Shown piece by piece: positions 2,142 to 17,613 of a DNA stretch of 38,106 nt (positions are counted from its first letter, which is position 1; each line of letters opens with the position of its first letter). A program made the translations under genes and the position numbers. Source of the stretch: an uncultured Anaerolineae bacterium (GTDB lineage: Bacteria; Chloroflexota; Anaerolineae; Aggregatilineales; UBA3940). The DNA lies in contig CAZWUX010000004.1 in NCBI GenBank assembly GCA_964637665.1, positions 3,080 to 41,185 on the forward strand, in the 5' to 3' direction. The notes beneath the pieces are model-generated. The model saw nothing but the letters and a program-made list of their open reading frames with translations. It was not told the origin of the DNA and did no database searches.

Positions 2142-2903
2142 CTATCTCCTCGGATCGCGGTAGCGGATCAGATCAAAGCTCATATGATTACCGGGATAAA
2201 ATTCATAGGAATGCCATACGGGATGCTCGTCGGCGTTATAGCCGACCTCTTCGATGACGAGCACCGGGGTGTTCGGCGCCTGCGGCATGTCGGGGAAATC
2301 ACAGGCCGCGACCGTGCTGGCCTGGATCGATGCGATGTGGTAGTCGACGCGCTGCCCGCACCGTATCTCCAGAAAATCGAATAGAGGCTCGGTGATCTCC
2401 GGGTCCTGATCGATCTCCTTTACGATGCCGTCGCTGAAGACCCAGATGGGGATCGTGTTGACGCAGTAGATGACCGGCTCGCCGTCGGCGAAGAAGATTT
2501 TCTCGGCGCGTAACACCCGGCTGGCAGGCTCGATCTGGAGGGCGTCCGCCGCCTGCTCGTTCACTTCCTCGAAGGCAGCACTGACAAATTCCACGTCGTA
2601 ATCGAAGCCGTTGCCCGTGATGAGCGTCTCGAAATCCATCGCCTCGTTGAGTGGGTGAGAGAGCCGGGACAGCTTGCTGATGAAGTTCCCCACGCCGTGA
2701 CGGCGCACGATGAGTCCGCGCGCGGCGAGGGCGCTGATGGCGCTGCGGACGGTCGCGCGGCTGACCTTAAACTCGGCGGCGAGGTTGTGCTCCGGCGGCA
2801 GTTGTGTTTCGGGCGGGTAGATGCCCTCTTTGATGCGTTGAAAAAGGATCCCGCGCACTTGATGCGACAAAGGTGTTCCGCGCACAGGTGTACGAGAGGC
2901 CAT
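2142..2903 (-). CDS. GntR-family (HutC/UTRA subfamily) transcriptional regulator
   Basis: Winged-helix motif LPPEHNLAAEFKVSRATVRSAISALAARGLIVRRHGVGNFI followed by a UTRA-like effector domain of about 150 aa. I placed the start at ATG 2903 (MASRTPVRG...). The 40 extra upstream codons in the track ORF (to 3023) look non-coding. Confidence 0.8.
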   Translation of the reverse strand: MASRTPVRGTPLSHQVRGILFQRIKEGIYPPETQLPPEHNLAAEFKVSRATVRSAISALAARGLIVRRHGVGNFISKLSRLSHPLNEAMDFETLITGNGFDYDVEFVSAAFEEVNEQAADALQIEPASRVLRAEKIFFADGEPVIYCVNTIPIWVFSDGIVKEIDQDPEITEPLFDFLEIRCGQRVDYHIASIQASTVAACDFPDMPQAPNTPVLVIEEVGYNADEHPVWHSYEFYPGNHMSFDLIRYRDPRR

Positions 2904-3148
2904 TGGTCGCACCCCAATCAAATCAAACCGCCTTGGCAAGCTGCTGGCGAGGTCCCTGTGTGAACAGGCGAGTGGACACACCACAGCAGGAGTATCAAAG
3001 GGCACCGCGGAGATGGCAGCCATCTGACAACCCCAGCGTATAATAAGATAGGCGGGCTGTCAATATTCCTCGCCTAACCTGACAAAGTGGATGAGATTAG
3101 ATTCAGAGAGGAGCGAGGAAACGCACTGCGCTTTGTTCTCCTTCCTGC

Positions 3149-4981
3149 TTACAGATACATCGCGCTCAGGAAGTGCCGCTGAAATTCGGGGTGTGTGGTC
3201 AGCTCGACGTATTCCACGCGCCGCAGGAACGCGTCGATCACGCCCTGCTGCTCGTTCGAGAGCAGCACGCGCTGCGCGCCCATGCCCGCCGCGTTGCCGA
3301 CCTGCCGGAAGCGCTCGACGGGGATATCCGGGAACATCCCGATGCGGATCGCGTTCGGGACGTCGATGTACGTCCCGAACGCGCCCGCCACGATAAACGT
3401 CTGTATCTCGTCCGCCGGGATGCCCGCCTCGGCCAGCAGGATGTCGATCCCGGCCCGAATGGCCGCCTTGGCAAGCTGAATTTCGTTCACGTCGCTGCGG
3501 GTGATGGTGATATCGCGGCCATGTCCGGTTTTTTCCGCCGGAACGAGCACGAACTCCGGGGGTTTGCCGTCCCCCCCGGCCCTCACCTGCGGGTGATCGA
3601 CGATCAAAGCGCCTGTGTTCTCGATAATGCCCGCCGAGCGCATCTCAGCGACGGCGTCCAGAATACCCGACCCGCAGATTCCGACCGGCGGTGCGTCGTC
3701 GATCGTGTAGATGAGCGTGTCGCCCTCCGTCAGGCGGATGCGCTCGACCGCGCCCGCTGCGGCCCGCATCCCCGCGCGGATGTGCGCGCCCTCGAACGCC
3801 GGGCCGGAGGCGCACGAGCAGCTCAACAGGCGATCGCCGACCGCCAGCGTGATCTCGGTGTTCGTCCCGATGTCGAGGGCGATGGCCGGTTCGTCGAACT
3901 GCCAGATGCCGGTCGCCAGAATCATCGCGACGTGGTCGGCCCCGACGTAGCCCGCGATGTTCGGCAGCAGGTGGACGCGCGCCCCCGATGCCAGTTCGAG
4001 GCCGAGATCGTGCGCCCGCATGTCGAGCGCATCGCTCACGGCGGGCACGTAGGGCGACAGCGCAAGCTGCCGGACCGGAAGCCCGGCGAACAGGTGGTGC
4101 ATGGCCGTATTGCCCACGACGACGGCCTCGACGACGTGCTCAGGCGGTTGGCTCACCTCGCCGCACATCTCCGCCACCATGCCGTTCAGAGCCTCGACCA
4201 CCTGTTGTTGGAGCGCCCGGCGGCCCTGCGCCTCTTGGTTGGCGTAGGCGATGCGGCTGATCACGTCCTCGCCATAGGCGATCTGCGGGTTCATCGCCCC
4301 CCGCTGGGCTAACACCGCGCCGGTCGCCAGATCGAGCAGATAGGCGGCCATCTTCGTCGTGCCGATGTCGACCGCCAGCCCCAGCAGCCGCGTCTCAGGC
4401 GGCAGCACGGCGACGACCTCGCCGCGCCGCAGCGCCAGCCGGGCGGACCAGTCGGCTGCCCGCAGCCGGTCCGACAGATCGGCCAGCAGCGGCCACCCGA
4501 TCGCGACCGGCGAAATCCCCTGCTCGGCCAGCGCGTCTCTAAGCCGCGTCGTGTCCGAGCGTAAATCGTGCAATGTGGGCGGGCTGAGCGTCACGTCGAC
4601 GGCCTTTACCGGCGGATTTAGGTCCACGTCGGCCCGCTGGCCCTCGACCTGAAGCCGCTGCGGGGCGGACAGCGATTCGGGCGGGATGTCGATCCGAACG
4701 TCGCCCAGCACCCGCGCCTGGCAGGCCATCCGCAGGCCCCCGGCCAACTCGTCGGCAGTCAGGATATCCTCCTCCGCCGTCGTCGGCGGGGAGAGCCTGC
4801 CCTCCACCACCCGCACGATGCAGCTCTCACACCAGCCCTCGCCGCCGCACAGCGAGACGATCCCGACGCCCGCCGACTGCGCGGCGGCCAGCAGCGTCGT
4901 GCCGGGTTCGACCTCGATCCGGCGTCCGACCGGCTCCATGTCGACGAGCAGGTGTCCGGCGTCAGGTGGTGGCTGGCTCAT
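3149..4981 (-). CDS. corrinoid reductive activase (RACo/AcsV/RamA-like): N-terminal plant-type 2Fe-2S ferredoxin + ASKHA ATPase (DUF4445) domain
   Basis: 610 aa. The N-terminus has the cysteine pattern SLCGGEGWCESC...ACQ. ASKHA phosphate motifs follow: LAVDIGTTKMAAY, VVVGNTAMHHL, ALDIGTNTEI, CSCASGPAFEG. The start overlaps the upstream gene by 20 nt. Confidence 0.8.
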   Translation of the reverse strand: MSQPPPDAGHLLVDMEPVGRRIEVEPGTTLLAAAQSAGVGIVSLCGGEGWCESCIVRVVEGRLSPPTTAEEDILTADELAGGLRMACQARVLGDVRIDIPPESLSAPQRLQVEGQRADVDLNPPVKAVDVTLSPPTLHDLRSDTTRLRDALAEQGISPVAIGWPLLADLSDRLRAADWSARLALRRGEVVAVLPPETRLLGLAVDIGTTKMAAYLLDLATGAVLAQRGAMNPQIAYGEDVISRIAYANQEAQGRRALQQQVVEALNGMVAEMCGEVSQPPEHVVEAVVVGNTAMHHLFAGLPVRQLALSPYVPAVSDALDMRAHDLGLELASGARVHLLPNIAGYVGADHVAMILATGIWQFDEPAIALDIGTNTEITLAVGDRLLSCSCASGPAFEGAHIRAGMRAAAGAVERIRLTEGDTLIYTIDDAPPVGICGSGILDAVAEMRSAGIIENTGALIVDHPQVRAGGDGKPPEFVLVPAEKTGHGRDITITRSDVNEIQLAKAAIRAGIDILLAEAGIPADEIQTFIVAGAFGTYIDVPNAIRIGMFPDIPVERFRQVGNAAGMGAQRVLLSNEQQGVIDAFLRRVEYVELTTHPEFQRHFLSAMYL

Positions 4982-5666
4982 AGTGATCCTGGTAGCGGCA
5001 GGTTTCCCGCATACTGCAATAATCGCAGGTTCGCCCCCCGCTGTTGATTTCGGCCCCGATGCCCAGCACCATCGACAGCGATTTCCGGGGGATCATCGTG
5101 CCGTACTCGGTGAGGGTGATGTCGACCTCGTCCATCAGACTGAATATCTGCGGCTGACCGACTTCGACGGGCCAGCCGAGCATACCCGGACTCAGGGGGA
5201 TCGTCGTCTGCATACCGGAGAGGGCCGCCTCGTCCTCGAACTGGCGGCAGGCCCAGTTCGCCAGCGCCTCGACGGCGGCGGACCCCACGCCGTCGAGCGC
5301 CAGCCCATAGACCAGCTCGTCCTGAATCACGCGGGCGGACAGCTCCTCCAGCGACGGACCGATGGTGCAGATCAGCGCGACGACGCGCTCCGCCGGGCCG
5401 AGGTGCTGCGCGATCAGCGGGCCGCTCAACGTGCCTCCCCCGGCCAGCGTCAGCCGTTCGTGCCGCAGCCCTTCCACCTCGAACGTCTGGTAGACGGTCT
5501 GTGGCTGGAGCATCGCGCGGCCCACCTTCAGCGCGCGTGCCGCCGTCTCGACGAGGTGCGGGCTTCGAGCGCGGATAGCCGCAGGATCGGCACCCTGTCC
5601 GCGCAGCACGTCGTCCACGTCGATGGTGGGTTCCCAGTCTTCCAGCTTGGGCATTCCTCTCTCCAT
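4962..5666 (-). CDS. methionine-synthase (MetH) activation-domain-like protein (Met_synt_B12-like) with C-terminal Cys cluster
   Basis: 234 aa. SPGMLGWPVEVGQPQIFSLMD..ITLTEYGTMIPRKSLSMVLGIG resembles the MetH reactivation domain core (G(Y/W)P...Q..F.L....LTES..M.P..S.S). The C-terminus is CDYCSMRETC. The start may be ATG 5666 or ATG 5654 (MPKLED...), since the SD GGAGG sits between them. Confidence 0.6.
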   Translation of the reverse strand: MERGMPKLEDWEPTIDVDDVLRGQGADPAAIRARSPHLVETAARALKVGRAMLQPQTVYQTFEVEGLRHERLTLAGGGTLSGPLIAQHLGPAERVVALICTIGPSLEELSARVIQDELVYGLALDGVGSAAVEALANWACRQFEDEAALSGMQTTIPLSPGMLGWPVEVGQPQIFSLMDEVDITLTEYGTMIPRKSLSMVLGIGAEINSGGRTCDYCSMRETCRYQDHYEPATT

Positions 5667-5708: not shown

Positions 5709-6326
5709 CTAACGCACGCCCAGCATCCCCAGAATCAGGTGGTGCGCCGTGCCGAACAGCTTCTGGAGATCGAAGGCGTCATTATCGACCAGATATTGGA
5801 CGGTCGCGCCCTCCATCAACGAGACCATCATGGCCGGGACGATACCGGCATACGCCGCGTCGAACTCGCCCCGCGCCACCCCCTCGTCGACGATGGCCTT
5901 GATCTCGGTCCGCCAGTTGGCGTACATGGACCGCAGCTTGTTGCGCACGTCCGCGTCGGTGGTTCCCTGCACCCAGAAGTTGTAGTACGTGTCCATGAGG
6001 TACCGGCGCTGCGTGATGATCTCCGCTTTCTGATCGAGGAAGCACGCCAGCTTGTCGGCGGACGAGCCGTCTAATTCCTGAAGCGCGCAGCGGCGCTCTT
6101 CTTTGAAGGTTTCGAGCATACGGTCGAGCAGCGCCAGAAAAAGCTCGGCTTTGGAGGGGAAATAATAGTGCAGGTTGCCCTGACTCATCCCCGCCCGGTC
6201 TGCGATGCCCCGCAGGGTGGTCCCGTCGATGTTGTGCTCTGCTATGGCGCTCAGCGTGGCGTCGAGGATCGCATTACGGGGTGATTCCCGCTCCACACCT
6301 GCGCCTTCGTCCACTGACTCGGACAT
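5709..6326 (-). CDS. TetR/AcrR-family transcriptional regulator
   Basis: HTH motif TLRGIADRAGMSQGNLHYYFPSKAELFLALL followed by a helical ligand domain. Start set at ATG 6326 (MSESVDEG...); the track ORF extends to 6401. Confidence 0.8.
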   Translation of the reverse strand: MSESVDEGAGVERESPRNAILDATLSAIAEHNIDGTTLRGIADRAGMSQGNLHYYFPSKAELFLALLDRMLETFKEERRCALQELDGSSADKLACFLDQKAEIITQRRYLMDTYYNFWVQGTTDADVRNKLRSMYANWRTEIKAIVDEGVARGEFDAAYAGIVPAMMVSLMEGATVQYLVDNDAFDLQKLFGTAHHLILGMLGVR

Positions 6327-6473
6327 GAAACGCCTCCCTGGGAGGAACTCCCGATCATCTGGCTTCAGATCGTAGCGCGGGGCGGGAGAGCCTACAAACA
6401 CCGGCCAGCGGTGGCCGGGTCGCCGCTCGCGCCCACCGGGGGCGCGAGCGGCACCTGAAAGTGGAGGGAGGCG

Positions 6474-7868
6474 CTAGTCCCAGGGTCCCTGCTCGAACGC
6501 GAGTCCGAGCGAGGACAGTTCTTCCTTCACCCGGCGGTAGCAGTCCTGCCATTCCTGCGTGGGCGTGACGGTCTTGACGTTGTAGGCTTCGGAGAAAGGC
6601 TTGCCGCGCTTCGGATTCTTGAACGTGTCTTTGTACTTTTCGAGCAGCGTGAGGGCGATCTCGTTGGCCTGCTCGCGGGTGATCCCGGCGCGGGTCGTCG
6701 CGCGGGCCACCTCACCCTGGAAGCCACATTCCAGCCCGGTGTGGTGATCGACCAGGTTGCCGCCCGTGCTGCCGACGCCGTGCTGCGTGAAGCTGCACAC
6801 CTCGCCCAGCATGGCGTGCCCGGCCACCTCGTAGAGCAGCTCGTCGGTGCAGGGGCCGCACATGCAGAAGGGGTCGTCCGTGTAGACGAGGTGCGTGTTG
6901 CGCCCCATCGCCTGCCCGACGGTCGACAGGACGTACATGCCCCAGGGATCGGAGTTGTTCGTCCACTTGATGTGCGTGATGCTGAGGTAGTGATAGGTGG
7001 CGAAGTAGCAGATCACGCCGATCAGGAACTCGGCAACCGAGACGATGGCGACACCCTCCGGTGGCCCACCGACCCCGCCCGTGAGCGGCGTCATCAGGTT
7101 GACGATGTGCGATCCGTAGTTAAGTAGATGCGGAACGCGGGCAAGCTGATCGTCGTCGACCTTCAACTCGCACATCTGGGCGACCAATCGCCCATCACAG
7201 GGTCGCAGACCGTTGACCGGCTCGCTCGCCGCCATCTTGCCGATGGCGGTCATGCCGGTCGCCGCGTCGCCGATGTGCATCCCCGGACGCCCGACCCGGC
7301 GCACGGCCTCGCGCGCGCTGGCGGCGTCGCGCTGGACGGCCATGACCTCCGTCAGCGTTCTCGCCATGATGTCGTAGCCGTTGTAGGTCAGCGTCGCGCC
7401 CGACTCGATGGCGTCCACGTAGGGTTCCTGCGCGTAGCTGATCAGCAGCGGCAGGTAGTAGTCCTCGCTGCACGGCTGCCCGGCGGGGCCGGTGAGATTG
7501 TACGACGGGCTGGGGTCCTCGACGCCGCGATGCTTCGCGACGACCATATCCGCGCCCTCGCCCAGCCGCAGCTCGGACGGCGCGTACCGCAGGGCCTCCA
7601 TGATCTCCGAGCGGCTGAACTTGATCACCCGCTGGGTGTCGAGGTGGTAGCAGCCCACGTCGAGCAGAAGCTGCACCCCGGCCTCAAACAGCCGGTCGGC
7701 CATCGCGTCATCTGACGGGCAGACAAGCTGCGGGTCATAGGTGATCTCGTATTCTCTCGCGAGTTCTACCACGCGGCGTCCGACCATCAGGTCGAACTCG
7801 ACTTCCTTCATGAACGGGCCTGAGCGCGAGCGCTGGTAGATCTCCATCAAACGGTCGTTCATGAACAT
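6474..7868 (-). CDS. MtmB-family (monomethylamine:corrinoid methyltransferase-like) protein lacking pyrrolysine
   Basis: 464 aa and uninterrupted. Blocks shared with my recollection of archaeal MtmB: GRPGM, ELKVD, PLTGGVGG, HIKW, CGPCTDE, TGLE..GEVARAT, AYNVKTVTPTQEW. The gene follows the corrinoid protein gene with a 2-nt gap. Confidence 0.75.
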   Translation of the reverse strand: MFMNDRLMEIYQRSRSGPFMKEVEFDLMVGRRVVELAREYEITYDPQLVCPSDDAMADRLFEAGVQLLLDVGCYHLDTQRVIKFSRSEIMEALRYAPSELRLGEGADMVVAKHRGVEDPSPSYNLTGPAGQPCSEDYYLPLLISYAQEPYVDAIESGATLTYNGYDIMARTLTEVMAVQRDAASAREAVRRVGRPGMHIGDAATGMTAIGKMAASEPVNGLRPCDGRLVAQMCELKVDDDQLARVPHLLNYGSHIVNLMTPLTGGVGGPPEGVAIVSVAEFLIGVICYFATYHYLSITHIKWTNNSDPWGMYVLSTVGQAMGRNTHLVYTDDPFCMCGPCTDELLYEVAGHAMLGEVCSFTQHGVGSTGGNLVDHHTGLECGFQGEVARATTRAGITREQANEIALTLLEKYKDTFKNPKRGKPFSEAYNVKTVTPTQEWQDCYRRVKEELSSLGLAFEQGPWD

Positions 7869-7870
7869 GG

Positions 7871-8545
7871 CTATGCTTCCTTTCGAGCAGCGAGAAGGGA
7901 ATTGGCAACCTGCACGGCGCCCGACGCCGAATCGGAATAGCCGTTCGCGCCGATCTCGTCGGCATATTCCTGATCGATGGAGCCGCCGCCGACGATGAAG
8001 AGGTACTTATCTTCCAGGCCAAGCTCGCGCAGCAGGTCGGCGACCTCGCGCGCACCGGCCCGCGTGATGCTCATCAGGGCCGACGCGGCGATCACGTCCG
8101 CGCCGTTGCTCTCGGCGGCATCGATGAAGTCCGCCGCCGCCACGTCCTTGCCGAGATCCACCACCTTGTAGTTGTGGGCCTTGAACAGGCTGGCGACGAT
8201 GTTCTTGCCGATGTCGTGGATGTCGCCCTTGACCGTGCCCAGAATGACGAGGCCCTGCGCTTCCATCGCGCCGCCCCGGCTGGTGATGGCATCCTCGATG
8301 ACCTTCGAGGCCGCGTTGCCCGCCTCGCCTGCCGCCATCAACTCAGGCAGGAAAATTTCGAGGTCCTCGAAGCGCCTGCCGACTTCGGTCAGGGTGGGGA
8401 CGATCACCTGCTGGACGAGGGCCAGCGGCTCGATGCCCCCCTCCAGCGCCGCCTCCGTCGCGGCGGCTGCGGCCTCGCGGTCGCCCTGAGCCAGCGCCGA
8501 CGCCAGTTTCTCGGCTACGTCGTTTGGAATGGTAGATGCGGTCAC
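7871..8545 (-). CDS. cobalamin-binding corrinoid protein (MtmC/MttC/MtbC-like, B12-binding cap + Rossmann domain)
   Basis: 224 aa with the DxHxxG signature GDIHDIGKN, SALMSIT and GGG motifs, and an N-terminal helical cap. GTG start at 8545 with SD AGGAGGGAG 6 nt upstream. Confidence 0.85.
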   Translation of the reverse strand: MTASTIPNDVAEKLASALAQGDREAAAAATEAALEGGIEPLALVQQVIVPTLTEVGRRFEDLEIFLPELMAAGEAGNAASKVIEDAITSRGGAMEAQGLVILGTVKGDIHDIGKNIVASLFKAHNYKVVDLGKDVAAADFIDAAESNGADVIAASALMSITRAGAREVADLLRELGLEDKYLFIVGGGSIDQEYADEIGANGYSDSASGAVQVANSLLAARKEA

Positions 8546-8656
8546 GTTCGCTCCCTCCTGTTTGTGTGGAACATAGTGGTGAGCACCCAGTTAAAGGCCC
8601 ATCATGTCTGGGAAATATCGTTTTTCGGTCGGTGAACGCCCTGCGCGGCACATATA

Positions 8657-8845
8657 CAAAAAGGAGCAGGGCCACATACGCTGACGGTACATGGGTCTGC
8701 TCCTTCTCCTCGGAAAAATGCAGTTGCCTCTGGAAATCGCGGCTGGTGATCTGGCTTCGGCCCGGTTTAGCTCACGCCGGACGCCTCACAGTTGCGGGAC
8801 AGCGCCGGATTCTCACCGTCTTCCCCCGCCGCTTTTCCTTGTTGT
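8657..8845 (-). promoter_or_regulatory. cobalamin (B12) riboswitch, copy B, with intrinsic terminator
   Basis: The reverse-strand RNA reads GGGGGAAGACGGUGAGAAUCCGGCGCUGUCCCGCAACUGUGAGGCGUCCGGCGUGAGCUAAACCGGGCCGAAGCCAGAUCACCAGCCGCG. It has the same core and B12-box as copy A. The terminator follows: GGAGCAG...CUGCUCC + UUUUUG (8657-8703). It sits about 110 nt upstream of the corrinoid protein start. Confidence 0.85.
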
Positions 8846-9054
8846 GTCAGGTTGTCAGAAGGCTCCTTCGCGCCAGCGGGCCTGATCGGCAGCGATTCTC
8901 GGCCCAGAAAAGGGAGATGGCATGTGCTCAGGCTGGTGTTCATTCGGTCAACCGACCTAATTTGATCCAAGCATAGGGGACATTCACCCGGCGCTCAACT
9001 GACGAATGTCACCGTCCACCTGTGACGTTTGTCAACCAGAGGGGGCGAATCCAC

Positions 9055-9131: not shown

Positions 9132-10592
9132 TCACCTGAGCGGCGTGGGGAACGTCACCTCGCCGATGATCTGCTCGATCTGCGCCTGCACCTCCGGGGG
9201 CAGCGGCGGGACCTCGTGCGTCGCGATGATTTTCCGCAGTTTCTCCTCGACCCGGTCTCCCAGCGTCTTGCCGCCCGACCCTTCCCACAGGGTGTACGCC
9301 TGCCGGTCCAGCACGGTCGGCACCCATATCTCCCGGCGGCAGACCTCGACCGAGCGCGGCTCCGCGAGGTAGTGGCCGCCCGGCCCGATCTGCTCGATCA
9401 GATCGAGCATGATCGTCTCCGCGCTGACCTCGATCCCGCGCAGCATGTGCCGGACCATGCCGATGATCTCATCGCACATCACGACCAGCGGCAGCGACCC
9501 GATGTGGCCGCTGTCCATAAAGCCCAGATCATGCACCATCGCCGCGCTGCTCAGCGCTGACATGATGACCTGCGCCGTGACCTCGATGGCCGCCTGCTGG
9601 TCGAGCACCTTGCTCTCCGTCGCCCCGGCGGTCCCCATAAACGGGATGCCCAGCCAGCGGCACAGGTCGGACCCGGCGGCGCTGAGCTGGCTCATCTCCG
9701 GCGCACCGTAGGCGGGCCGCGTCGTGCGCAGATCCATCGGCTGGGGCACCCAGTCGGTGACGAAGGGCGCGCCGCGCCGCTTAAGCTGGACGATCGCCAG
9801 CCCGCTCAACATACCCGCGAGGTAAAGCGCCAGCGCGCTCGCCCCGGTGAACGGCGCGGTCAGCCCCGGATTGGGGCCGCCTGAGTAAATGACCGGGATG
9901 CCATGCTCCGCCGCATAAAGGACGCTGCCCATCTCGTCGTTCATGTGCTTGAGCGGCGGCTGGAAGGTCGTGAACAGCGCGAAATTCGGGCGCTGCCGGA
10001 AGGCCCGCTCGCCCCCGGCGGTGGCTGCCGCCATCCGGTGGATGGCCGCCAGATTTTCCGGCCCGTAGGCCCACGCCACGATGGGCTTGGTCGTGTTCGC
10101 CAGCATCTCCGCGAACTCATAGACCGGCACCCACGCCGGGTCGGGCACGTCGTCGATCAGGCCCAACCCCATCACATAGTCGACGTTGGGCAGCGCATCG
10201 CACACCCGCGCCGTCAGGCCGGGGTCCCCCCGGCGCGATTTCCGCTTCTCACCCGTGTTCGGGTCGACGAAGTACGTGCTCGTCAGGCCCGGCCCGAAGT
10301 GGACGCGGCCCTGCGCGATCTGGATCGCCTTCGCCGGATCCCGCCCGTACAGCGTAAAGCCGCGTGGGGCCGACGCCAGCGCATCGCGCACGATGTGCGC
10401 CGGGATGGTCACCCGGTCGCCCTCGGCCTGCGCTCCGGCCCCGACCAGCAGATCGCGCGCCTCCTGATTGTAGACGAGGACCCCTGTGCGCCGGAGAATC
10501 TCATACGCGGCGTCGAGCAGGATCCTGCATTTTTGCTCCGAAAGAACGTTGAACTGTGGCGTCTGGTGATCGGCGTTGCTCGTGATGATCAT
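9132..10592 (-). CDS. MttB-superfamily (trimethylamine methyltransferase-like, COG5598) non-pyrrolysine methyltransferase
   Basis: 486 aa with no in-frame TAG. The overall pattern is typical of MttB homologues: N-terminal LSEQKCRILLDAAYEILRRTGV, GPGL, the FMGTAG..ESK region, and GPGGHYL near the C-terminus. Confidence 0.75.
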   Translation of the reverse strand: MIITSNADHQTPQFNVLSEQKCRILLDAAYEILRRTGVLVYNQEARDLLVGAGAQAEGDRVTIPAHIVRDALASAPRGFTLYGRDPAKAIQIAQGRVHFGPGLTSTYFVDPNTGEKRKSRRGDPGLTARVCDALPNVDYVMGLGLIDDVPDPAWVPVYEFAEMLANTTKPIVAWAYGPENLAAIHRMAAATAGGERAFRQRPNFALFTTFQPPLKHMNDEMGSVLYAAEHGIPVIYSGGPNPGLTAPFTGASALALYLAGMLSGLAIVQLKRRGAPFVTDWVPQPMDLRTTRPAYGAPEMSQLSAAGSDLCRWLGIPFMGTAGATESKVLDQQAAIEVTAQVIMSALSSAAMVHDLGFMDSGHIGSLPLVVMCDEIIGMVRHMLRGIEVSAETIMLDLIEQIGPGGHYLAEPRSVEVCRREIWVPTVLDRQAYTLWEGSGGKTLGDRVEEKLRKIIATHEVPPLPPEVQAQIEQIIGEVTFPTPLR

Positions 10593-10682: not shown

Positions 10683-12971
10683 TCAGCCCCGGCTCTGTAT
10701 CGCCGCCCGGACGCGCATCGGCGTGGCCGGGATCGTGCGGATGCGCGCGCCGATCGCGCGTGACACGGCGTTGATGACGGCAGGGGCCACCGGCAGCGTC
10801 GGCGATTCACCCAGCCCTTTCGCCCCGAACGGGCCGCGATAGCTGGGCACCTCCACCAGCTCGACGATCATGTCCGGCATCTCCCCGATCATCGGGATCA
10901 CGTAATCCGCGAGTCCGGTCGTCACGCCCGGCTGGTAGTCCTCAGTCAGCGCCGAGCCGATGCCCATCATGATCGCCCCCTGCACCTGCCCCTCAGCGTC
11001 CGGCGGGTTGATGGCCCGTCCCACGTCGTGCACGGCGACGACCCGCAGCACGTTCACCTGCCCGGTCTCCACGTCGACCGCCACCTCCGCCAGATGCGCG
11101 CCGGTCGTCAGGTTGGGTGTGTAGGTGAAGGGCCGCTCTCCGGGATACAACGGCCCGGCATCATACGCGCCCACCACCCGCCGCGAGAGGCCCATCCGGT
11201 CGAGTTCCGCCGCGACCTCCGCCAGCGACACCGCCCCCGGATCGCCCCCATCACAGCGCAGCACATCCCCGGCCAGCGCCAGATCGTCCGGGCTGCACTC
11301 CAGCATCTCGGCAGCCGCCGCGACGACGCGGTCTTTCAGGCGGATCGCCGCGTCGCGCACCGCATTCCCCACCCAGTACGTCGCGCGCGACGCCCCCTGA
11401 ATGCCACTATCTGGCGCGCGGGCGGTGTCTGCGTTGACGAGTTCGATCCGGTCGCGGGGCACGCTCAGCGTCTCCGCCGCGATCTGCGCCATCACCGTGC
11501 CGATGCCCTGCCCATAGTCGGCAGCGGTGCAGTACACGACGAAATGCCCATCCCCGGCCAGTTCGGCGTGGGCCTCGACCCGCAAATTCCCCGACTTCCC
11601 GAAGCGATGCCACATCCCCGCCAGCCCGATCCCGCGCCGCACCGGCCCGCCGGGGTGATCGGCATTGTAGGCGTCTACTTCCTCGCGGAACGCATCATAA
11701 TAGGGGCGGATCCGGTTCAGCACCTCCTCGTACCCCAGCGACTCGTCGACCGGGTAGCCGAGGAACGACCGCTCACCCTCCCGCAGTCGGTTCTCCAGCC
11801 GGAAGGCGATTGGGTCGGCATCGAGCGCCTGGATCAGCTCATCGAGCGTGCACTCCAGCGCATAAGTCGACTGCGGCGTGCCGAATCCCCGGAACTGCCC
11901 GCACTTCGGGCCGTTGGTGTAGACGCTCTGCGCCATCGCGTCGACCGCCTGCCAGCGGTACGGGCCGCCGCTGGCCGTCACGGCGTAATCGGGGATGTGC
12001 TGGCCGTCGCAGTCGTAGGCCCCGGTGTTCGCCACGATGCGCACGTGGATGCCCGTCAGGCGGCCTTCGCGCGTCGCGCCGATCCGGTAGTCGAGCGTGT
12101 AGGGGTGGCGCTTGGGGGATGCGTCGAAGGATTCCGAGCGCGCCATCGCGAGCCGGACGGGGCGCTTCAGCAGGTAGGCCATGACGCCCACGGCGACGAG
12201 CGGCCAGGGGTCCTGTTTACCACCGAAAGAGCCACCCGTCGGCGGGGTGATGAACCGCACCTGCCCGGCAGGGATGCCCACCGCCGCCGCGATCCAGTCA
12301 CGCTGCCAGTGCGGTTCGTGCGTGCCGCCCATCACCGTCAAACGGCCCTCGGCGTCGAACGTGCCCAGCGCCGTCTCGCGCTCAAGCGCAGCGTGCTCCT
12401 GAAACGAGGTGACGTACCGCCGCTCGATCACGACGTCGGCGGCGTCGAAGGCGGCTTCCATGTCGCCGTGACGGATCGCAAAATCGCTCAGCAAGTTGCC
12501 ACCGGGGTAGATCGGCTCGGCATCCGGGCGCAGCGCATCCAGCGCATCGAACGTGTGTGGCAGCGGCGTGTAATCCGCGCCGACGCGGCCTGCCGCCGCC
12601 CTCGCCGCCTCGCGTGTTTCGGCGGCGACGAACGCCACCGGCGCGCCGCGCATCTTCGCGATCCCCCCGACCGGGACGAGCAGCGGCTCGTCGACGCTGT
12701 ACCCCGGGAAGCCATTGACGCCGGGGATGTCCCCCGCCGTGAACACGCGCACGACGCCCGGCATCCGCGCGGCTTCCTCCACATGCAGGGCATCCAGCCG
12801 CGCGTGGTGATGCGGGCAGCGCACGACGTGCGCGTGCAGCAGCCCATCGAGCGCCATGTCCTCGACGTACTGCGTGCGGCCCGTCACTTTGCCGAGCGAG
12901 TCGATGCGGGTCGTCTGGCCGCCGATGGGACGGCGGGGTTTCGGTTTGTCGGGGGCGGGGTGCCGGGTCAT
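10683..12971 (-). CDS. xanthine dehydrogenase/aldehyde oxidase-family molybdopterin-binding subunit
   Basis: a/b-hammerhead N-terminus (RIDSLGKVTGRTQYVEDM). Molybdopterin-domain motifs: GGSFGGK, GFGTPQ, DYGQGIGTVMAQIAAE, AKGLGESPTLPVAPAVINAV. Start moved to ATG 12971 (MTRHPAPDK...). The first 114 codons of the track ORF (GTG 13313) overlap the ptsH promoter region and look non-coding. Confidence 0.8.
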   Translation of the reverse strand: MTRHPAPDKPKPRRPIGGQTTRIDSLGKVTGRTQYVEDMALDGLLHAHVVRCPHHHARLDALHVEEAARMPGVVRVFTAGDIPGVNGFPGYSVDEPLLVPVGGIAKMRGAPVAFVAAETREAARAAAGRVGADYTPLPHTFDALDALRPDAEPIYPGGNLLSDFAIRHGDMEAAFDAADVVIERRYVTSFQEHAALERETALGTFDAEGRLTVMGGTHEPHWQRDWIAAAVGIPAGQVRFITPPTGGSFGGKQDPWPLVAVGVMAYLLKRPVRLAMARSESFDASPKRHPYTLDYRIGATREGRLTGIHVRIVANTGAYDCDGQHIPDYAVTASGGPYRWQAVDAMAQSVYTNGPKCGQFRGFGTPQSTYALECTLDELIQALDADPIAFRLENRLREGERSFLGYPVDESLGYEEVLNRIRPYYDAFREEVDAYNADHPGGPVRRGIGLAGMWHRFGKSGNLRVEAHAELAGDGHFVVYCTAADYGQGIGTVMAQIAAETLSVPRDRIELVNADTARAPDSGIQGASRATYWVGNAVRDAAIRLKDRVVAAAAEMLECSPDDLALAGDVLRCDGGDPGAVSLAEVAAELDRMGLSRRVVGAYDAGPLYPGERPFTYTPNLTTGAHLAEVAVDVETGQVNVLRVVAVHDVGRAINPPDAEGQVQGAIMMGIGSALTEDYQPGVTTGLADYVIPMIGEMPDMIVELVEVPSYRGPFGAKGLGESPTLPVAPAVINAVSRAIGARIRTIPATPMRVRAAIQSRG

Positions 12972-13217
12972 CGTTCTCCCGTGATGGTTGGATGTGCTTG
13001 CGATGAGGGCCTGATCAGCCGCGTTCCTCTGCGCCGCCGGGGGCTTCCACCCTACGATATCCTGAATCGCCGCGAAATCAAAATACGACGAGATCGCCGG
13101 AAAGGGAGGGGCGACCCGCTCCACCATCTCGCGGACACCTGACGCTCCACCGCGCGATACGTTATCATTGACGCAGCCGCGCCGCAGCCCGCGTCTCGCG
13201 GCCCGGTGCGCGGCATC

Positions 13218-13246
13218 TTGACTCGGCCCGGAATCCGGGATAGATT
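13218..13246 (+). promoter_or_regulatory. sigma70-like promoter for ptsH
   Basis: TTGACT (13218-23), 17-nt spacer, TAGATT (13241-46). The spacer contains the palindrome CCCGGAATCCGGG. Confidence 0.5.
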
Positions 13247-13336
13247 TGCCCATTGTGAAATTCGTATCACACATATGAGAAAAACAGCGGTCCGGCGCGC
13301 TGGCCGAACGCACACACCCCCCTGGAGGCAGTTCCC

Positions 13337-15161: not shown

Positions 15162-16226
15162 ATGCCACTCGTCGAACATACCCATCTACCGGCATTCGGA
15201 CGCCTGCGCCAGCGCGGTCAGGAGGTGCTGACGCTCGAACGCGCATTGACGCAGGATATCCGCGAGCTACACATCGGGTTCCTCAACATGATGCCCGACG
15301 CGGCGCTCCGCGCCACCGAGGAGCAGTTCATGCGGCTGGTGGGCAACTCGAACCAGATCGCCCAATTCTACGTCCACCCTTTCTCCATCGACGGCGTGCC
15401 GCGCGGCGCGGAAGCGCAGGCATACATCGACCAGTACTACACCACGTTCGATCAGCTTCGCGCGGACGGGCTGGACGCCCTGATCATCACCGGGGCCAAC
15501 GTGACGAACCCCGATCTGGAGAACGAGGATTTCTGGGGGCCGCTGACGGAGGTGATGGAGTGGGCGTCCGAGTACGTCACCTCCGTGCTGTGTTCGTGCC
15601 TCGCCACGCACATTCTCATGCAGTGTTTTTACGGCATCAAGCGGCGGCATCTCCCCCAGAAACGCTGGGGGGTGTTCAACCATCGCCTCGCCTATCCGGG
15701 CCATCCCCTGCTGCGCGATGTCAACACCCGCTTCGACGTGCCCCACTCGCGCCACAACGAGATCACCCGCGAACAGCTTGACGAGGCAGGCCTGACCGTG
15801 CTCATCGACAGCCCGGAGGCCGGAGTCCACATGGCCGTCAGCCCCGACCAGTTCCGGCGCGTGTTCTTTCAGGGCCACCCGGAGTACGACATCAACAGCC
15901 TGCTCAAGGAGTACAAACGGGAGGTGCGGCGCTACCTGAACGGCGAGCGCGGCTGTCCGCCATACCCCGCCAACTACTTCTCGCCGGAGGCGCAGGCCAT
16001 CGCCGGTGACTACATCGAGCGCGCGCTCCGCACCCGCCACAACGGCACCAAGCCGCCGCCGTTCCCTGAGGGGGACATCCTCCCCCATGTCGATAACACG
16101 TGGGGCGACACGAGCAAGGCGGTGTTCAACAACTGGCTGGGGCTGGTCTACCAGCTAACACACGTCGACCGCCACGTTCTGTTCATCGAGGGCGTCGATC
16201 CCGACAATCCGCTGGGGCTGCTCTGA
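15162..16226 (+). CDS. metA: homoserine O-acyltransferase (MetA/HTS family; probably O-acetyl given the MetY partner)
   Basis: 354 aa, collinear with E. coli MetA as I recall it: IGFLNMMP, ALIITGA, WASEYVTS, VPHSRHNE, GHPEYD, NWL..VYQ. Confidence 0.9.
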   Translation: MPLVEHTHLPAFGRLRQRGQEVLTLERALTQDIRELHIGFLNMMPDAALRATEEQFMRLVGNSNQIAQFYVHPFSIDGVPRGAEAQAYIDQYYTTFDQLRADGLDALIITGANVTNPDLENEDFWGPLTEVMEWASEYVTSVLCSCLATHILMQCFYGIKRRHLPQKRWGVFNHRLAYPGHPLLRDVNTRFDVPHSRHNEITREQLDEAGLTVLIDSPEAGVHMAVSPDQFRRVFFQGHPEYDINSLLKEYKREVRRYLNGERGCPPYPANYFSPEAQAIAGDYIERALRTRHNGTKPPPFPEGDILPHVDNTWGDTSKAVFNNWLGLVYQLTHVDRHVLFIEGVDPDNPLGLL

Positions 16227-16341
16227 TCGAGGGGGAGGTTGAGAAACGCTGGGCGTTTCTCACGCGCAGCGAGGCAGAGGGGATTTTCGCACGAAATCAA
16301 CGCACTTTTTCGCAAAACACATAGCCATTCGAGGAGACATA

Positions 16342-17613
16342 ATGAAGCCGGAAACCATCGCCATACACGGCGGCTACGAAAGCGACCCCACCACGAAGGC
16401 CGTCGCCGTGCCCATCTACCAGACCGTCGCCTACGAGTTCGACAACGCCCAGCACGGGGCCGATCTGTTCAATCTGGCCGTGCCGGGCAACATCTACACG
16501 CGCATCATGAACCCCACCAACGACGTGCTGGAGAAGCGCGTCGCCGCACTGGAGGGCGGCGTGGGAGCGCTGGCCCTCAGCGCGGGCAGCGCGGCGGTGA
16601 ACTACTCCGTGCTCAACATCACCGCCGCAGGGAACAACGTCGTGTCCGTGCCGCTGCTCTACGGCGGCAGCTACACGCTGTTCGCCCACATGTTCCCCAA
16701 ACAGGGCATCGAGGTCCGTTTCGGCGAGGACGACAGCCCCGCCGCGCTCGAATCCCTGATCGACGATAAGACGACGGCGGTTTTCTGCGAGTCGATCGGC
16801 AACCCCGCCGGGAACATCCCCGATCTCGAAGCCATCGCCGAGATGGCCCACGCGCACGGCGTCCCCGTCATCGTGGATAACACCGTCGCGACCCCCATCC
16901 TGATCCGCCCCTTCGACTACGGCGCGGATATCGTCGTGCACTCCCTCACCAAGTACATGGGCGGCCACGGCAATTCCCTGGGCGGCATCATCGTCGATTC
17001 GGGACAATTCCCCTGGGCCGAGCACGCCGAGCGCTTCCCCATGCTCAACGAGCCGGAGCCGTCCTATCACGGCGTCGTCTACACCGAGGCGATGGGCGAG
17101 GCGGCCTACATCGCCCGCGCCCGCACCGTCCCGCTGCGCAACACGGGGTCGGCCCTCAGCCCGTTCAACACCTTTTTGATTTTGCAGGGCATCGAGACGC
17201 TCCCCCTGCGCATGGAGCGCCACTGCGACAACGCCGCCGCCGTCGCGGGTTATCTCAGCCAGCACCCGAAGGTCAACTGGGTGAGCTACGCCGGGCTGCC
17301 CGACTCGCCCTACTACGATCTGGCCCAGAAGTATACGAACGGCAGACCATCCGCCCTGCTGTCTTTCGGCGTCGAGGGCGGGTTCGACGCCGGGGTGAAG
17401 GTCTACGACGCGCTCAAAATCTTCAAGCGGCTGGTCAACATCGGCGACGCGAAGTCGCTGGCCGCCCATCCCGCCTCCACCACGCACCGCCAGCTTTCGG
17501 CGGAGGAGCTTGCGGCGGCGGGCGTCACCGACGACATGATCCGCTTATGCGTCGGCATCGAGAACATCGACGATATTATTGGCGATCTGGATCAGGCCCT
17601 CGCCCTCGTCTGA
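16342..17613 (+). CDS. metY: O-acetylhomoserine sulfhydrylase / aminocarboxypropyltransferase (PLP-dependent)
   Basis: 423 aa. Motifs: PIYQT.AY.F, YTRIMNPTNDVLEKRVAALEGG, the PLP-lysine motif SLTKYMGGHG, and LVNIGDAKSLA.HPASTTH. Confidence 0.9.
   Translation: MKPETIAIHGGYESDPTTKAVAVPIYQTVAYEFDNAQHGADLFNLAVPGNIYTRIMNPTNDVLEKRVAALEGGVGALALSAGSAAVNYSVLNITAAGNNVVSVPLLYGGSYTLFAHMFPKQGIEVRFGEDDSPAALESLIDDKTTAVFCESIGNPAGNIPDLEAIAEMAHAHGVPVIVDNTVATPILIRPFDYGADIVVHSLTKYMGGHGNSLGGIIVDSGQFPWAEHAERFPMLNEPEPSYHGVVYTEAMGEAAYIARARTVPLRNTGSALSPFNTFLILQGIETLPLRMERHCDNAAAVAGYLSQHPKVNWVSYAGLPDSPYYDLAQKYTNGRPSALLSFGVEGGFDAGVKVYDALKIFKRLVNIGDAKSLAAHPASTTHRQLSAEELAAAGVTDDMIRLCVGIENIDDIIGDLDQALALV

Follow-up and report, generated by a model that had tools for sequence, protein, structure and literature searches.

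The window analysed here, a 38,106-nucleotide stretch of DNA from an uncultured Anaerolineae bacterium (assembly GCA_964637665.1, contig CAZWUX010000004.1), carries at 6474-7868 on its minus strand a gene for a methyltransferase of the MtmB family that has glycine in place of pyrrolysine (Pyl), the UAG-encoded residue of the monomethylamine methyltransferases. Read along the minus strand (to which window coordinates refer unless marked otherwise), the locus comprises a molybdenum (Mo) hydroxylase subunit, an MttB homologue, a cobalamin riboswitch, a corrinoid protein, the MtmB homologue itself, a TetR regulator, a protein resembling the activation domain of MetH, a RACo-type activase, a GntR regulator, a second riboswitch, a deaminase and Bmp, a binding protein of the BMP family. 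We propose that the MtmB homologue is the substrate-specific methyltransferase (MT1) of a corrinoid-dependent system and, tentatively, that it acts on N-methylated purine-type compounds.

Membership of the MtmB family had been put forward by a sequence-only reading of this DNA, with a profile search and a structural comparison suggested as checks, and both bear it out. The open reading frame (ORF) has 464 codons from an ATG start to a TAG stop, with no internal stops, and Pfam PF05369 (MtmB) matches the 464-residue product over profile positions 4-450 of 450 (E=5.5e-95, 319 bits for a cut-off of 25). In a phmmer search of the PDB, residues 9-458 aligned with Methanosarcina barkeri MtmB1 (1L2Q/1NTH, E=4e-67), the two proteins being ~30% identical over their full length. 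The AlphaFold model, built with 75 homologues in the alignment (pLDDT 96, pTM 0.94), superimposes on 1L2Q in Foldseek with TM scores of 0.94 and 0.96 and a root-mean-square deviation of 1.4 Å over 454 columns, and MttB and MtgB structures rank after it, at TM scores of about 0.5; the predicted model thus has the MtmB-type TIM-barrel fold. Among NCBIfam models, none matches the protein. All the motif blocks listed in the sequence-only reading are present (GRPGM, ELKVD, PLTGG, HIKW, CGPCTD, TGLE..GEVARAT and AYNVKTVTPTQE), with one small correction on the archaeal side: M. barkeri has AGPCTE, not CGPCTE.

The alignment around the Pyl site has no gaps (GRPGMHI-G-DAATG in the window, GRPGMGV-X-GPETS in MtmB), so that Gly200, encoded by the GGC codon at 7269-7271 (read 7271-7269), occupies the place of Pyl202 of M. 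barkeri MtmB; that assignment, already made from the sequence, therefore holds. The in-frame UAG at the residue-202 position that marks MtmB proper is absent from the window gene. TAG is the stop codon of 9 of the 22 window genes, among them the MtmB homologue and the corrinoid-protein gene, and no tRNA genes were found within the 38-kb window. This use of TAG as a stop argues against amber recoding, without settling the matter for the whole genome. The gene is confirmed as a real Pyl-free member of the MtmB family and had been correctly described as such.

A word-indexed search recovered 144 homologues, from which we define clade A as the roughly 74 clusters at least 58% identical to the window protein. 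They share the motif GRPGMHI-G-D[AC]ATGMT, the residue at the Pyl position is Gly in 94% of sequences and Ala in the others, and every named member belongs to the Chloroflexi/Anaerolineales. In a sister clade B (43-52% identity to the window protein), which includes the homologue of Moorella naiadis (49% identical), Asn or Glu occupies the Pyl position; further clades have Leu, Val, Ile, Thr and other residues there. An exhaustive HMMER search covering 1.84 billion representatives of 50%-identity clusters returned 1009 matches at E<=1e-3 and 222 at E<=1e-30. The window protein's own cluster has a single representative and members from Chloroflexota/Anaerolineae only; the next best full-length representative is 44% identical and none lies above 44-48%. 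Grouping of the top 150 representatives at 40% identity gives about 70 groups, with a hypervariable residue at the Pyl position. Among GTDB species representatives, 15 loci carry clade A, all in metagenome-assembled genomes (MAGs) of Chloroflexota/Anaerolineae, and 68 carry clade B, mostly of Chloroflexota, with Moorella naiadis and a few Actinomycetota; the window protein's clade is largely confined to Chloroflexota. Pyl-containing MtmBs and their nearest Pyl-free relatives are 28-31% identical to the window protein, which, judged by such comparisons, is no close relative of anything characterised.

The loss of Pyl goes together with a rebuilt pocket. Conservation was compared between 164 distinct Pyl-mtmB genes (from methanogens and bacteria, with one in-frame TAG each) and 70 clade A plus 23 clade B sequences: 140 positions are at least 95% conserved in the Pyl-MtmBs, and clade A retains 57 of them, mostly Gly, Pro and scaffold residues, and changes 65. 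The changes include Pyl202 to Gly200, G203 to D201, H228 to R227, E229 to L228, L233 to M232, N234 to C233, E259 to L258, Q260 to M259, M261 to T260, D296-G297-P298 to L-S-I, Q333 to D332, Y334 to P333 and Y335 to F334; the replacements at Pyl202, G203, H228, E229, E259, Q260, M261, Q333, Y334 and Y335 are each ~100% fixed in clade A. The residues that invariably surround Pyl in MtmB proper (E229, E259, Q260, Q333, Y334, Y335, H228 and G203) are thus all exchanged (for L, L, M, D, P, F, R and D, respectively). In MtmB, E229, E259, Q333 and Y335 serve to position and protonate the pyrroline ring. A 21-position substituted signature is identical among clade members that are 58-96% identical overall. 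Compared with L187, a locus whose MtmB homologue is 96% identical (L-numbers designate related loci compared with the window), the window gene shows 104 nucleotide differences, 88 of them at third positions, which amount to 84 synonymous and 17 non-synonymous codon differences: it is under strong purifying selection. Because the replacements are fixed in the clade and synonymous differences are in such excess, the sequences describe a functional protein with a new conserved pocket rather than a decayed MtmB.

For the same reasons, it is scarcely credible that the gene is a mere remnant of an mtmB that lost its Pyl codon, with a product that is catalytically inactive or no methyltransferase. 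The loss of the catalytic residue and its partners would fit such a relic, as would the absence from the window of the methyltransferase that accepts the methyl group (MT2, below); purifying selection, the invariance of the 21-residue signature, the translational coupling to a corrinoid protein, the riboswitch-controlled operon and the synteny with MT2 and RACo in relatives all speak for a working enzyme. In such an enzyme, the loss of the long Pyl side chain at Gly200 and the replacement of E229 and E259 by Leu would make the pocket larger and more hydrophobic, and D201, D332, R227, H351, H363, N305 and Q384 could form hydrogen bonds with a heterocycle or bind a ring nitrogen that carries a positive charge. 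The M232-C233 pair was considered as a possible counterpart of the Met and Cys positions reported for MtqB, a Pyl-free MtmB homologue discussed below; among the representatives, no group other than clade A carries it.

The gene for the cognate corrinoid protein (7871-8545; 224 residues) lies immediately upstream. Its product has the Pfam domains B12-binding_2 and B12-binding, with NCBIfam matches to pyl_corrinoid and MtgC-like models that stay under the equivalog cut-offs, and the two genes meet at a TAG-CC-ATG junction, the 2-nt gap in which the sequence-only reading had already seen tight coupling. A cobalamin riboswitch aptamer (8723-8900; Rfam RF00174, 36.7 bits for a gathering threshold of 31.5) forms the leader of this operon. 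A second one (1995-2138; RF00174, 41.5 bits) precedes the deaminase and BMP transporter genes. Both are conserved in L187 (3227-3352 and 10173-10240), and the one upstream of the corrinoid gene is also kept in L167 (9102-9218) and L189 (9011-9164). Folding of 8536-8740, together with the sequence itself, reveals a GC-rich hairpin and U-run at 8658-8708, probably the terminator of an expression platform. Since this terminator-like hairpin comes right after the riboswitch, the element looks like a switch that turns OFF upon cobalamin binding. Such logic is paradoxical for a B12-dependent operon. Downstream of the MtmB homologue there is a weak hairpin (6418-6401).

Two further genes of the island would serve corrinoid activation. 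The RACo-type ATP-dependent reductive activase (3149-4981), correctly named from the sequence, has the Pfam domains Fer2, RACo_linker, Raco_middle and RACo_C_ter and AcsV/RamA-like NCBIfam matches. The 234-residue protein encoded at 4962-5666 resembles the MetH activation domain (PDB 1J6R, E=5.8e-6; Pfam Met_synt_B12 at only E=0.28); it is 55% identical to its homologues in L005 and L002 and, in relatives, its gene lies between MT2 or TetR and RACo. The window therefore holds a proposed MT1 gene, an adjacent corrinoid-protein gene and a nearby activase gene, as expected of a bacterial three-component corrinoid methyltransferase system. In most relatives the core operon encodes the corrinoid protein, the MtmB homologue, a Pterin_bind protein, the MetH-activation-like protein, in some cases TetR, and RACo, with Pterin_bind, the presumptive MT2, directly after the MT1 gene at 9 of 19 mapped clade A loci and also in L184. 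A tblastn search for a Pterin_bind (PF00809) homologue found none anywhere in the window, and there is none in L187 or L188. The TetR gene fills the slot that the pterin-binding MT2 has in relatives, an arrangement shared with L187 and L188; with no MT2 gene at any of these three loci and TetR in its slot, the MT2 of this lineage must be encoded elsewhere. We conclude that the window protein is very probably an MT1 that moves a methyl group from its substrate to the Co(I) of the corrinoid protein, from which MT2 forms methyl-tetrahydrofolate, RACo repairing oxidised Co(II). The earlier suggestion that it is a working MT1 component gains from the purifying selection (84 synonymous to 17 non-synonymous codons) and from the conserved operon.

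Islands of this kind in Anaerolineae hold up to six MtmB paralogues of different clades. Every paralogue comes with its own corrinoid-protein gene, while MT2, the MetH-activation-like protein and RACo occur once each and are shared. The Actinomycetota MAG L226 (Acidimicrobiia UBA4744) likewise has an island of six MtmB paralogues, of which one is 58% identical to the window protein; Pterin_bind, RACo, xanthine-dehydrogenase subunits and a DadD-type deaminase accompany them, a composition suggestive of horizontal transfer of the entire module. A single MtmB paralogue is called as two overlapping ORFs in each of three Anaerolineae MAGs, with differing split points (L001 1126-2521, minus; L003 5448-6852, minus; L184 13673-15048, plus). 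These splits are not due to in-frame TAG codons and may reflect either frameshift errors in long-read assembly or genuine pseudogenes.

What distinguishes these loci is their purine-type neighbourhood. We counted as markers xanthine-dehydrogenase subunits, four types of deaminase, BMP binding proteins and PucR, and found at least one at 12 of 16 clade A loci and 49 of 55 clade B loci (41 of the 55 with a BMP substrate-binding protein), that is at 61 of 71 related loci overall, and at none of 110 Pyl-mtmB control loci; the controls had flanks of 4 kb, compared with 10 kb in the test sets, and the test loci are phylogenetically related and hence not independent trials. The variety of gene arrangements nevertheless argues for selection on proximity. 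The recurrent neighbours are xanthine-dehydrogenase-family enzymes, adenine deaminase, the adenosine/adenine-deaminase family, TadA/cytidine-deaminase-fold genes, GntR/UTRA regulators and BMP ABC transporters; there are also recurrent amidohydrolases that score above or near the NCBIfam cut-off for 5'-deoxyadenosine deaminase and match guanine and 8-oxoguanine deaminase strongly as well. In the window itself this set is represented by a gene of the adenosine/adenine deaminase family (646-1668; 340 residues; Pfam A_deaminase E=7.9e-72, TIGR01430 above cut-off), whose product has 4GXW and 3OU8 as its best PDB matches, the latter presumably an adenine deaminase of the same family, by a GntR/UTRA (HutC-type) regulator identified by Pfam (2142-3023) that recurs beside MtmB paralogues in the neighbourhood maps of relatives, and by the 5' part of a BMP-family lipoprotein gene, the substrate-binding component of an ABC transporter (1-480, cut by the window edge, start approximate; 93% to the Bmp of L187 by tblastn). 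L187 and L188, whose MT1 proteins are 96% identical to that of the window, keep its gene order and continue with the deaminase, Bmp, an ABC ATPase and a permease, the window carrying the start of the same Bmp gene. An apparent frameshift in the window Bmp gene was considered and rejected: signal peptide and linker are intact, and the break is a shorter PAEEEAA repeat linker after the lipobox than in L187 (11998-13221). Each of the two operons, corrinoid/MT1 and deaminase/Bmp, has a cobalamin riboswitch, which suggests a shared regulon.

The same association takes several forms elsewhere. Deaminases and a BMP ABC transporter flank the clade A gene in the same orientation in L176 and L177. In L184, a 75%-identical clade A gene is directly followed, in one operon, by Pterin_bind, the MetH-activation-like gene and the FAD and iron-sulfur (FeS)/Mo subunits of a xanthine dehydrogenase. 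Moorella naiadis AZ13.I is the only cultured carrier that came to light; its cluster (L183) comprises PucR, Bmp, the corrinoid protein, the MtmB homologue, Pterin_bind, an enzyme of the 5'-deoxyadenosine-deaminase family and xanthine dehydrogenase, and a purine riboswitch (L183 17731-17830, plus strand; 55.7 bits) precedes a second xanthine dehydrogenase (FeS/Mo/FAD genes) inside this cluster. Among solved structures, AtzT (6PI5) and Brucella 3S99 come closest to the BMP proteins (E=1e-61 to 1e-97), both of which we take to be binders of free purine bases.

Because purine-type genes co-occur with the MtmB homologues at the related loci and at none of the Pyl-mtmB loci, the gene neighbourhood points to an N-methylated purine-type base or nucleoside (a methyladenine, methylguanine, methylxanthine or close N-heterocycle) as the methyl donor, rather than to a simple amine, an assignment to which we give a little less than even odds. 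The broader reading, which we hold with a probability of about 0.4, is that clade A and its sister clade B represent the first N-demethylases that act on methylated purine bases or nucleosides through a corrinoid, be they RNA-derived methyladenines and methylguanines or methylxanthines such as caffeine; the methyl groups would enter the one-carbon (C1) pool on tetrahydrofolate, the purines would pass to deaminases and xanthine dehydrogenase, and each of the four to six paralogues of a genome, which differ in their substitutions, would serve a methylpurine of its own. In such a pathway, the neighbouring BMP-family ABC transporter would import the substrate, which would bind at the centre of the MtmB-type TIM barrel in a pocket formed by Gly200 and the clade-invariant D201, R227, L228, M232, C233, L258, M259, T260, D332, P333, F334, H351 and H363. 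The methyl group would then pass to Co(I) in the corrinoid protein, whose gene lies 2 nt upstream, and the pterin-binding MT2, encoded outside the window, would transfer it to tetrahydrofolate, with RACo and the MetH-activation-like protein re-reducing any oxidised corrinoid. The adenine/adenosine-type deaminase would act next on the demethylated purine, and the xanthine-dehydrogenase-family enzyme would oxidise the product. Cationic N-methyl heteroaromatics (1-methyladenine, 7-methylguanosine, 3-methylcytosine) are chemical analogues of quaternary amines as methyl donors to Co(I), and this resemblance would explain why pyrrolysine is dispensable. Catalytic activity, tetrahydrofolate acceptor and substrate class of the window protein are what we infer from this context. 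Our literature search returned no paper tying corrinoid proteins to methylated purines; a 2026 preprint describes the formation of 13C-methane from caffeine N-methyl groups in anoxic sediment, with Anaerolineae among the enriched taxa and no enzyme identified.

Several observations weigh against the purine proposal besides the shorter flanks of the control loci. The neighbourhood signal is strongest in clade B, the sister of the window's own clade, and several clade A loci have their deaminase or xanthine-dehydrogenase gene in an operon with another, neighbouring paralogue. The BMP transporter stands behind a cobalamin riboswitch and could therefore serve salvage of the cofactor or its lower ligand rather than substrate uptake, which would weaken the purine argument without removing it. 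The window is without a methylenetetrahydrofolate reductase as it is without MT2, and no FeS or FAD partner of the Mo subunit was found nearby. Finally, three features fit a quaternary amine: the weak BetI likeness of the adjacent TetR, the neighbouring Pyl-free MttB homologue, and the substrates of the only characterised Pyl-free MtmB (Kashyap et al., Front Microbiol, March 2026; PMC13044021).

It is thus conceivable that the enzyme is a quaternary-amine:corrinoid methyltransferase (for choline, tetramethylammonium, betaine or similar), like MtqB and the Pyl-free MttB homologues, and that the purine genes are mere neighbours. MtqB takes tetramethylammonium and choline (PMC13044021). The TetR regulator (5709-6401; Pfam TetR_N and TetR_C_6) has a BetI-type C-terminal domain and weak NCBIfam matches to BetI and RutR, the best being BetI, far below cut-off. 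The Pyl-free MttB-superfamily methyltransferase (9132-10592; 486 residues; PF06253 E=1.1e-78; MtgB structures 9YCE/2QNE E=1.5e-52) is encoded 1.3 kb upstream, in a transcription unit of its own that is followed by a terminator-like hairpin (9096-9063), and D201 and D332, acidic residues new to the site, could bind a cationic nitrogen. However, no BCCT- or Opu-type transporters and no choline or betaine genes were seen in any annotated related locus, purine-type genes occur at most of them, the window protein is separated at 50% identity from all other family representatives, and the MtqB clade is described from Methanococcoides, Methanosarcina, Asgard archaea and proteobacteria, not Chloroflexota. 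We regard a quaternary-amine substrate as unlikely, though still a serious candidate.

A different N-methylated ring is also to be considered. The substrate could be a non-purine cationic N-methyl heterocycle (trigonelline, N-methylnicotinamide, or a methylated pterin, flavin or pyrimidine) whose ring is then hydroxylated by the molybdenum hydroxylase. Xanthine-dehydrogenase-family enzymes also hydroxylate nicotinate and other N-heterocycles, and BMP-family binding proteins bind riboflavin and other heterocycles too. The xanthine-dehydrogenase-family enzymes at these loci score below the equivalog cut-offs for xanthine dehydrogenase; so does the XdhA-like match of the Mo subunit in the window (10683-13313; Pfam Ald_Xan_dh_C and MoCoBD_1/2). 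A weak "B6 ABC" match, the invariant R227, which could bind a carboxylate, and the TadA/cytidine-deaminase-fold genes that adjoin clade A genes in L167, L176 and L177 would suit such a ring as well. Adenine deaminase, the adenosine/adenine deaminase family, the 5'-deoxyadenosine-deaminase family, PucR and the purine riboswitch are, on the contrary, all purine-specific, and we consider a non-purine ring rather unlikely. As for the Mo subunit itself, a fused FeS domain was considered and rejected: the N-terminal 110 residues look non-coding and the true start is probably near 12970. The pair formed by this gene and the MttB homologue is missing from the 96%-identical relative L187, which has a transposase in its place. 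About 1.8 kb past the methyltransferase island, on the plus strand (15162-17613), lie genes for a homoserine O-succinyl/acetyltransferase and a Cys/Met pyridoxal-phosphate enzyme (metA/metY-like).

The purine neighbours could also be read together with the family name, if the enzyme were a pyrrolysine-independent monomethylamine methyltransferase and the deaminases freed methylamine from N6-methyladenine or N6-methyladenosine. Adenosine-/adenine-deaminase-family enzymes can indeed release methylamine from N6-methylated adenines, and MtqB has low monomethylamine activity without Pyl. Here, however, the invariant acids next to Pyl, E229 and E259, are both Leu and Gly200 removes the reactive group; moreover, that a genome has several paralogues with different substitutions, each paired with a corrinoid protein of its own, points to several distinct, larger substrates. 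This possibility seems to us remote.

If methylated purines are indeed the substrates, the consequences would reach beyond this locus. We know of no enzyme for the anaerobic N-demethylation of methylated purines, including nucleobases from RNA and DNA turnover and micropollutants of the caffeine type. Nucleic-acid turnover would be linked to the C1 metabolism of abundant uncultured Anaerolineae, the routine annotation "monomethylamine methyltransferase" in metagenome studies would have to be corrected, and the clade would provide an example of a Pyl-dependent active site rebuilt for different chemistry. Pyl-free MtmBs are known as a kind, one of them with a substrate, and the window clade is an uncharacterised variant rather than a new category; its rebuilt invariant pocket and consistent purine-type neighbourhood make a new substrate class plausible. 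The clade is a concrete lead to such a class, and hundreds of further divergent clusters of the family come from the exhaustive search.

To our knowledge, MtqB, reported in 2026, is the only pyrrolysine-free MtmB homologue with a known substrate, and the statement of the sequence-only reading that no Pyl-free member of the family had one must be given up. The gene for MtqB of Methanococcoides methylutens Q3c follows that of its corrinoid protein, and the enzyme transfers methyl groups to cob(I)alamin from tetramethylammonium, choline and, weakly, monomethylamine; its clade (Methanococcoides, Methanosarcina, Asgard archaea and proteobacteria) branches near the Pyl-MtmBs, and Pyl-free MtmBs are described as a large family that was recognised years ago (PMC13044021). 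Like the window protein, it is a Pyl-free MtmB-family member directly after its own corrinoid gene, and its activity demonstrates that corrinoid methylation by this fold does not require pyrrolysine. The genomic contexts differ: MtqB is archaeal and feeds methanogenesis via MtbA to coenzyme M, whereas the window host belongs to the Chloroflexota and relatives have a pterin-binding MT2 directly downstream. Cluster membership, clade taxonomy and the 28-31% identity to Pyl-MtmBs and their nearest Pyl-free relatives are indirect evidence against orthology of the window protein with MtqB, and no characterised orthologue with a defined substrate, a find that the sequence-only reading had said would overturn it, came to light. 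A genome scan led by the M. barkeri MtmB alignment returned Pyl-mtmB genes only, and one with P0245, the Pyl-free representative closest to MtmB, returned Pyl-mtmB genes of Methanomassiliicoccales; a fingerprint by the molecular weight of MtqB (49,382 Da) had no match. P0319 of M. methylutens MM1, recovered with the Pyl-free Methanolobus homologue as the search seed, was considered as MtqB and rejected, as it has no adjacent corrinoid gene; it is one of several other Pyl-free homologues.

P0319 belongs with orphan archaeal homologues (Methanolobus, Methanococcoides, Methanohalophilus; for example L163 5629-7002) of about 456 residues, ~31% identical to the window protein, that unlike it have no adjacent corrinoid-protein gene. 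This ~456-residue orphan, which is not MtqB, is conserved in Methanolobus, Methanomethylovorans, Methanococcoides, Methanohalophilus and Methanohalobium (L163, on the minus strand, L045, L048, L055, L083, L158, L162 and L257 10001-11371) and in Methanolobus is convergent with the Pyl-mtmCB operon. In Methanolobus bombayensis (L042), a tRNA-Pyl gene (7569-7640, minus strand) lies 2.2 kb from a Pyl-mtmB gene, flanked by aminopeptidase-like and hydantoinase-like genes and with no pylS beside it; L042 is the only fetched locus with a tRNA-Pyl gene.

With MtmB of M. barkeri, the window protein shares the Pfam family, the TIM-barrel fold and the pairing with a corrinoid-protein gene, but the UAG-encoded Pyl, E229, E259, Q333, Y334, Y335, H228 and the D296-G297-P298 motif are all replaced. 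MtmB of methanogens passes its methyl group to MtbA and coenzyme M, whereas relatives of the bacterial window protein would pass it to a pterin-binding MT2 and tetrahydrofolate, and Pyl-mtmB loci lack the purine-type neighbours of the window clade. A parallel in logic is the Pyl-free MttB superfamily (MtgB, MtcB, MtpB and MtyB, with partners of the MtqC/MtqA/RamQ type), in which a Pyl-free relative of a Pyl enzyme likewise acts as MT1. Those systems share with the window's relatives a cognate corrinoid protein, a pterin-binding MT2 to tetrahydrofolate, a RACo-type activase and many paralogues per genome. They differ in family (PF06253, not PF05369, with TM scores of about 0.5 in Foldseek), in their substrates, which are betaines and carnitine-type amines, and in loci that are unlinked to purine catabolism.

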